A program made the position numbers and the translations under genes. A stretch of 28,495 nucleotides of DNA from Candidatus Nanoarchaeia archaeon (GTDB taxonomy: Archaea > Nanobdellota > Nanobdellia > Woesearchaeales > DATDSP01): NCBI GenBank assembly GCA_035291205.1, contig DATDSP010000082.1:1-28495 (forward strand), in the 5' to 3' direction. The notes beneath the pieces are model-generated. The model saw only the letters and a program-made list of their open reading frames with translations. It did not search any database and was not told the origin of the DNA. Shown piece after piece: positions 20,976 through 21,095 of this stretch. Positions within the stretch are counted from its first letter, which is position 1. Each line of letters begins with the position of its first letter.

Positions 20976-21095
20976 TGTCAGAAATTGCTCTTGACGCAAT
21001 TTGCGATGCTTCAGCACGCAGTAAAGACGAGCAATTTCTGAGCATGCTCAAAAACTCCGCCACATGCTCCGCACTTCAGTGCGGAGTTTTTGACA
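20976..21095. mobile_element. Miniature tandem-hairpin palindromic element (non-autonomous, no ORF)
   Basis: Perfect 13-bp IRs TCAGAAATTGCTC/GAGCAATTTCTGA (20978-20990, 21029-21041) and TCAAAAACTCCGC/GCGGAGTTTTTGA (21048-21060, 21081-21093). Each encloses a CTTCAG-loop hairpin; outer IR is TGTCA/TGACA. The palindrome is certain, mobility is inferred. Confidence 0.55.

Follow-up and report, generated by a model that had tools for sequence, protein, structure and literature searches.

Between the stop codon of the TBP gene and the start codon of the MCM gene of a DPANN archaeon lies E1, a 120-nt block of tandem hairpins, and a second block of the same design, E2, lies further along the same contig. 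What are these elements, and how did they reach their present positions? We analyzed the 28,495-nt window that contains both, which is contig C82 of a metagenome-assembled genome (MAG; designated G000) of 780,641 bp (0.78 Mb; 91 contigs, 63% complete, 38% GC). The host is a DPANN archaeon of the Woesearchaeales type; its relatives are related to it at the order level only and have genome sizes of 0.6–2.1 Mb.

TBP (21230–21793) and the intein-containing MCM (17660–20839) are encoded on the minus strand, and further archaeal genes in the window encode Cdc6/Orc1, both PolD subunits, FEN1, and RNase P p30. The MCM intein has a LAGLIDADG domain, with Pfam matches at residues 373–712. Two 44-nt direct repeats with 91% identity (8009–8052 and 8059–8102), located approximately 600 nt upstream of Cdc6/Orc1 (8724–9953), are candidate origin-recognition boxes. 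The upstream region of MCM (20871–20975) is made of repeats, namely members of families 8 and 11 and the left part of a hairpin repeat, E3, and contains TATA-like runs. The GC-rich, structured end of the window (28361–28479) belongs to a further family of dispersed repeats, which has 29 matches in the genome.

E1 occupies positions 20976–21095 of the plus (top) strand and runs from TGTCAG to TTGACA; its boundaries were read directly from 20 aligned copies with unrelated flanking sequences. Unit A (20978–21041, plus strand) is closed by a 13-bp outer stem (arms 20978–20990 and 21029–21041) and contains an inner hairpin (21003–21019) with a C[TTCA]G loop (CTTCAG at 21009). Unit B (21048–21093, plus strand) is also closed by a 13-bp outer stem (arms 21048–21060 and 21081–21093), and its CTTCAG (21074) lies in an alternative inner hairpin (21067–21086, C[TTCA]G loop) that competes with the outer stem for one 3′ arm. 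This inner hairpin of unit B is absent from some E1 copies, and solo copies of unit B exist. A 12-bp palindrome, TGAGCATGCTCA (21039–21050), marks the center of the element and is contained in a 20-nt core, TTTCTGAGCATGCTCAAAAA (21036–21055). The five nucleotides preceding E1 (20971–20975, plus strand) form a conserved 5′ flank, TTAAA at this locus and TGAAA at most other sites, which we read as the target sequence.

E2 occupies positions 25570–25701 of the plus (top) strand. Its length, 132 nt including a terminal TTAT, is defined by a nested insertion on contig C17, and the TTAT on its left (25566–25569) represents the target or, alternatively, one copy of a 4-bp duplication. Both of its plus-strand units are closed by 11-bp stems, with arms at 25568–25578 and 25609–25619 in unit A (CTTTAG at 25598) and at 25622–25632 and 25687–25697 in unit B (CTTTAG at 25661). 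Within unit A, a module at 25581–25608, in which GGGTTTAATACC precedes a C[TTTA]G-loop hairpin, resembles a transposon left end, and within unit B, a hairpin at 25654–25673 (8-bp GC-rich stem preceded by AAAAC, C[TTTA]G loop) resembles a right end; both lie on the plus strand.

The first-pass annotation of this DNA had described the stems, the CTTYAG loops, and the 12-bp palindrome, and all of them are present at the positions it gave. It had assigned both elements to one family; E1 and E2 share a design without alignable sequence and are two separate families. Its limits for E1 were retained, and those for E2 (approximately 25565–25697) are better placed at 25570–25701.

As single-stranded DNA, E1 and E2 each fold into two adjacent hairpins, on either strand. 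The z-scores of the folds of both elements ranged from −5.2 to −7.2, and none of 200 dinucleotide shuffles folded as well. All four CTTYAG loops are on the plus strand, and thus the hairpins at both ends share polarity. Because the elements are also present in many copies in the genome, these folds are far more than a chance arrangement. No Rfam 15 family matched the window or three related loci at E ≤ 0.1, except for RNase P RNA elsewhere.

Repetition was evident in the assembly itself. G000 contains approximately 20 full copies of E1 (92–98% identity) in addition to partial copies and approximately 35 full copies of E2 (95–99% identity), and a dozen or more contig ends fall within E2. The copy-number check proposed with the earlier annotation thus bears out its view of the elements as non-autonomous and highly repeated. 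In contigs assembled from four public sequencing runs, the summed depth was 180–840 over E1 and E2 compared to 8–13 over unique DNA, and these contigs break at element edges. Self-comparison of G000 yielded 253 repeated intervals that amount to 48 kb (6% of the assembly) and comprise at least ten short families; no long multi-copy element was found. Long multi-copy repeats were considered as insertion sequences and rejected, as they were only diverged paralogous genes. Recurrent neighboring genes were sought around 29 and then 80 element loci, and only housekeeping genes were found.

The positions of the copies bear on whether the elements serve the host. A small RNA gene, bidirectional terminator, or regulatory hairpin that is selected for its fold and has secondarily spread would fit the location of most copies (16 of 20 in E1 and 26 of 35 in E2) in intergenic DNA, tens of bases or less from a gene end. 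Hairpin units with A-tract/T-tract stems ending in T5 would, moreover, resemble an archaeal terminator in either direction. Against such a role, 6 of the 35 E2 copies are located within open reading frames that encode 100 aa or more, among them the HTH-protein gene in the window, and no Rfam family matched. Recent mobility is required in any case because copies with 95–99% identity occupy dozens of unrelated sites.

The window copy of E2 lies wholly and in frame within the open reading frame of a 205-aa HTH protein (25121–25738, minus strand), where it covers approximately residues 12–57, and the minus-strand frame of this copy has no stop codon. One contig assembled from run X1 links position 25703 back to 25566, which would represent either a head-to-tail pair of E2 or a junction form; the join is uninterpretable because its shorter side is only 36 nt.

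We compared the flanking sequences of the copies. Every E1 copy in G000 has T(G/T)AAA on its left, and no target duplication was present at 12 distinct sites. Over 126 distinct sites of E1-type copies in many genomes, the left flank followed TTTTRAWA, with A in 93% of the sites at position −3 and in 90% at position −1, and the right flank was flat and unconserved; the asymmetry is directly visible in the aligned sites. The window copy sits in the loop of hairpin repeat E3 (left part 20939–20975 and right part 21096–21115, plus strand), as do about half of the E1 copies, and approximately 10 E1 copies share the flank formed by the left part. E3 without E1 was found on contig C26. Contigs from run X1 joined the E3 halves with 121 nt skipped, and these E1-skipping joints come from other E3 copies; at the window locus, no polymorphic empty site was visible because the run contigs break at element edges. 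At the end of contig C12 (1–115), a 23-nt piece of the left E3 part is tandemly repeated five times beside an E1 copy.

E2 always occurs in the context TTAT, TAAAAAC...GTTTTTG, TTAT. On contig C17, E2 is nested in E3 as a 132-nt insertion at a single TTAT, and a 4-bp duplication and an element that itself ends in TTAT fit this arrangement equally well. A search of G000 for IS200-type end signatures turned up only an unrelated family, E4, which was rejected as a candidate. E4 is a separate MITE family of approximately 165 nt; its terminal inverted repeats (GGCTAATATGAAACCCT) are 17 bp long, and its target duplications are 10 bp long. Its copies are located on contigs C71, C74 (for example, at approximately 12970–13160), C75, C62, C35, and others, and many of them lie approximately 100–190 nt from contig ends.

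E4 indicates DDE-type transposition in G000, and E1 and E2 could likewise be classical MITEs: a DDE transposase would act on their terminal inverted repeats (TGTCA...TGACA in E1 and TAAAAAC...GTTTTTG in E2) and move them as double-stranded DNA, with TTAT as a 4-bp target duplication of E2. Inverted terminal sequences are indeed present in both elements, TTAT always stands on both sides of E2, and, given E4, a DDE enzyme has probably been active in this genome. However, the clear 10-bp duplications of E4 serve as an internal control, as they indicate that duplications are detectable in G000 when present, and E1 has none at its 12 sites. Conservation on one side only over 126 sites also argues against this origin, as does one E2 copy in genome G026 with TCAT on the left and TTAT on the right. 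The stems, as described below, covary by base-pairing instead of keeping one binding sequence, and IS630-type DDE_3 (PF13358), the sole DDE family searched, was not found in G000. We therefore consider movement by a DDE transposase unlikely.

The conservation of E1 extends far beyond this genome. With at most one mismatch allowed, the core TTTCTGAGCATGCTCAAAAA was present in 78 of 401 Woesearchaeales-type genomes and 63 of 258 genera, with up to 44 occurrences per genome, and a reversed core used as a control gave 0 occurrences. Core-bearing contigs elsewhere were titled Candidatus Woesearchaeota, Nanoarchaeota, or Nanoarchaeia, and the core was absent from viral contigs. A common scaffold recurs around the core in the order TGTCAGAAAT, loop, core, loop, GTTTTTGACA. 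The loops range from 5 to approximately 70 nt; a minimal form has 56 nt, and a common form of approximately 175 nt is shared by five genomes from different families. The scaffold also exists without any IS200-like hairpin. E1 is thus a member of an order-wide superfamily in which the double-hairpin scaffold is conserved and the loops are interchangeable. In G172, three E1-type copies lie in one orientation in a single 1.3-kb intergenic gap (contig C7, 17600–18800). We found no published description of the scaffold.

The arms of the scaffold covary across genomes: a change in one arm is accompanied by the complementary change in its partner, as in the observed pairs TCAAGAAC and GTTCTTGA, TCAGAAAC and GTTTCTGA, and TCAAAAAT and ATTTTTGA, and mismatched combinations are rare. 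E2 behaves similarly. Its relatives (74–84% identity) are found in four other families of the order with conserved ends; across four genomes the stems covary, and three of these genomes keep the C[TTTA]G loops unchanged (unit B in G026 has TTGA).

Covarying stems, together with a scaffold kept at 20 of 20 nt across families while the loops shrink to 56-nt forms, are what a fold used by the host would show. The conserved 5′ flank, however, abuts the element, and a promoter at that position would start transcription within the covarying 5′ arm. Copies as similar as those of E2 at dozens of unrelated sites, as noted above, imply recent mobility. The direction of the copies relative to genes, which also bears on a host role, was examined along the chromosome.

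On the 731-kb contig C7 of G172, in which E1-type copies were oriented by their loop content, 10 copies below 400 kb were in minus and 2 in plus orientation, and all 9 copies above 400 kb were in plus orientation (0 minus). This regional switch was significant (Fisher p = 0.0002), and the orientation of the copies was unrelated to the direction of neighboring genes. The Cdc6 ortholog is located at 276 kb, where a weak shift in coding strand occurs (44% plus-strand coding on one flank versus 55% on the opposite one); the GC skew of this contig is uninformative on the origin because it is dominated by local gene strand. If the origin coincides with the Cdc6 locus, which is an inferred and not a mapped position, 18 of 21 copies would have the top strand on the lagging-strand template. 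Over five genomes, 37 of 47 adjacent copy pairs agreed in orientation; contig C1 of G009 had mixed orientations. Lagging-strand bias is a property of both IS608 and ISDra2 (PMC5027513). Transcription co-directional with replication would also fit such a bias, but the copies are unrelated to the direction of their flanking genes. Taken with the mobility, the copies inside open reading frames, and the position of the flank, these results make a host-used structured element an improbable explanation of E1 and E2.

If the elements move as single strands, which enzyme acts on them? We searched G000 and its relatives for the Y1 (HUH) transposase and associated proteins. Y1 (PF01797) had no match at E ≤ 0.01 in G000, which is 63% complete and consists of 91 contigs, many of them ending in repeats. 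TnpB (PF07282) was found neither in this assembly nor in five high-copy relatives. In the order, PF01797 was present in 127 of 401 genomes, namely 38 of 78 core-positive and 89 of 323 core-negative genomes (odds ratio 2.5, p = 0.0006), a statistic that ignores genome relatedness and general mobile-element load. Four near-complete relatives with E1-type copies had no PF01797 match, G009 (25 copies), G325 (14), G075 (12), and G071 (10). Among 102 Y1 loci examined, none was bracketed by E1 scaffold termini and none contained the core, and the E1-type copies in G001 and G375 lack the hairpins of the Y1 element of their own genome.

Both the HxH motif and the catalytic Tyr are retained in the Y1 proteins of G375 and G001 and in ten metagenomic relatives (45–67% identity), and the corresponding loci have one common sense-strand architecture with TTTAT or TTTAA as the left flank. 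In G375 and six metagenomic relatives, the left end, 100–165 nt upstream of the start codon, consists of a small hairpin, a GGGTTTAATACC-type sequence, and a C[TTTA]G-loop hairpin; in G001 and two other loci, this loop belongs to a left end of the GCAAGGATAC type. The right end directly follows the stop codon and consists of GATAC, a GC-rich C[TTTA]G-loop hairpin, and AGGAGGTCAT.

Unit A of E2 (25581–25608) agreed with the left end of seven of these IS200-like loci in polarity and at approximately 24 of 28 nt, and the TTTAT left flank is common to E2 and the IS200-like elements. The hairpin of unit B aligned with the right-end hairpin of 11 Y1 loci, a looser match than that of the left end. 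For E1, the observed similarity to Y1-element ends is confined to the inner hairpins. Inner hairpin B is identical at 19 of 20 nt to a hairpin directly after tnpB in an IS605-type locus that carries both tnpA and tnpB (L320), and both the ATGCT foot and the C[TTCA]G loop of unit B recur in the right-end hairpin of a second Y1 subfamily (G136 and G314). Such loops are frequent in G000: of 124 perfect, GC-rich hairpins whose loop is 4 nt long, 70 carry C[TTYA]G. The pairing rules between guide and cleavage site of IS608 were applied by eye to E1 and E2, without a convincing fit.

The resemblance of CTTYAG hairpins to IS200/IS605 ends, which the first-pass annotation had pointed out, was thus confirmed on real Y1 transposase loci. 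Its suggestion to look for TnpA(Y1)/TnpB genes with matching ends led to similar ends at Y1 loci elsewhere and to no gene in the assembled 63% of G000. Of the REP/PATE-like family that it proposed, the PATE part agrees with an E1 that has a conserved 5′ flank and no duplication, and the REP/RAYT part is contradicted by direct hairpins without a GTAG foot.

This last part deserves consideration as an explanation of its own, in which a single-copy, domesticated Y1 gene maintains hairpin repeats to the benefit of the host. Within the order, most genomes that contain Y1 yield no more than one or two matches to it, and the hairpin repeats themselves are numerous, short, and intergenic. The sequence of the E2 inner hairpin, in addition, recurs on a viral contig, in a REPIN of the bacterial type whose feet are GTAG. 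On the other hand, the hairpin foot in E1 and E2 has no GTAG-type tetranucleotide, the two hairpins of each element are direct and not inverted, and the Y1 genes examined have IS200-like direct left and right hairpins instead of flanking inverted REPs. A RAYT-like system is, of the explanations weighed here, the one we regard as least probable. The REPIN in question (L228, 3270–3325, on a GC-rich IMG/VR contig) consists of GTAG, a hairpin, a spacer, the inverted hairpin, and CTAC; it has the exact sequence of inner hairpin B of E2 in its hairpin and is otherwise unrelated.

Movement by a DDE transposase, use by the host, and maintenance by a RAYT-like enzyme each fit less of the evidence than the remaining explanation, and we conclude that E1 and E2 are probably non-autonomous PATE-type transposons, that is, ends-only derivatives of IS200/IS605 insertion sequences. 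For E2, derivation from the ends of an IS200/IS605-family element is well supported. E1 behaves like such a derivative in its lack of duplication, its one-sided target, selection at the level of structure, and the orientation bias seen on contig C7 of G172, and its inner hairpins are of the IS200/IS605 type; its outer scaffold has no known autonomous counterpart. We infer from these features a single-strand mechanism and a Y1 enzyme for both elements. The top strand would fold into two hairpins that act as the left and right ends, and a Y1 HUH transposase supplied in trans would bind them on single-stranded DNA at the replication fork. The enzyme would excise the top strand, which would then be re-inserted directly 3′ of a short AT-rich sequence, T(G/T)AAA in the case of E1 and TTAT in that of E2, without target duplication.

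Palindrome-associated transposable elements (PATEs) are ends-only derivatives of IS200/IS605 elements. As in E1 and E2, they have no coding capacity and carry hairpins at both ends on one strand; as in E1, they insert beside a short conserved 5′ sequence without duplication; and their end modules are similar to those of Y1-encoding elements, as are the ends of E2 and the inner hairpins of E1. Unlike in PATEs, the end hairpins of E1 and E2 are wrapped in a further A-tract/T-tract stem of 11–13 bp, E1 has a conserved central palindrome and an order-wide scaffold, and no matching autonomous element was found in the assembled G000. Rickettsia palindromic elements and Correia elements are MITEs with no known transposase, and Correia elements have TA duplications. 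Rickettsia palindromic elements resemble E2 in being palindromic repeats of 100–150 nt in a small genome, some of them in frame within genes; E1 and E2 differ from both groups in host and sequence.

In the IS200/IS605 family (IS608 and ISDra2), insertion places the left end 3′ of a sequence of four or five nucleotides, and subterminal hairpins form on the top strand (PMC5027513). E1 and E2 share with this family the top-strand hairpins and the GC-rich hairpins with C[TTYA]G loops, and E1 and, if TTAT is its target, E2 also share the short 5′ target sequence. Orientation in this family is linked to replication direction, a likeness that for E1-type copies depends on the inferred origin of G172. 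E1 and E2 differ from it in having neither tnpA nor tnpB, and the scaffold hairpins of E1 begin 2 nt from the termini, which leaves no room for the usual cleavage-site spacer. REP, BIME, and REPIN sequences with RAYT are bacterial, and REPINs are inverted pairs with a conserved GTAG foot (PMC3333891). They are abundant intergenic hairpins related to IS200/IS605 ends, as are E1 and E2, and their Y1 enzyme is likewise often single copy, but the hairpins of E1 and E2 are tandem and direct and have no GTAG.

The role of the A-tract/T-tract stems and the central palindrome of the E1 scaffold is not explained by known IS200/IS605 ends. It is conceivable, although we give it a distinctly minor share of belief, that the scaffold is an order-wide double-hairpin vehicle maintained by selection, in which loop modules, including IS200-type end hairpins, are swapped. 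If so, E1 would be a modular single-strand mobile element that has no dedicated transposase or is moved by a yet-unrecognized enzyme. A function for the host, for example in bidirectional termination, is also conceivable for the scaffold.

A large survey noted a Woesearchaeal genome with approximately 105 MITEs per Mb, whose families were not characterized (PMC11602168). DPANN genomes are minimal, yet at least 6% of the G000 assembly consists of short repeats, and the fragmentation they cause explains why these MAGs assemble poorly. Top-strand oligonucleotides of E2 combined with a Y1 protein of the G375/G001 type would be a tractable substrate for the study of archaeal peel-and-paste transposition. 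Approximately one in five of the genomes sampled from the order contains the E1 scaffold, and the orientation of its copies may provide markers of replication direction in archaea whose origins are unmapped.
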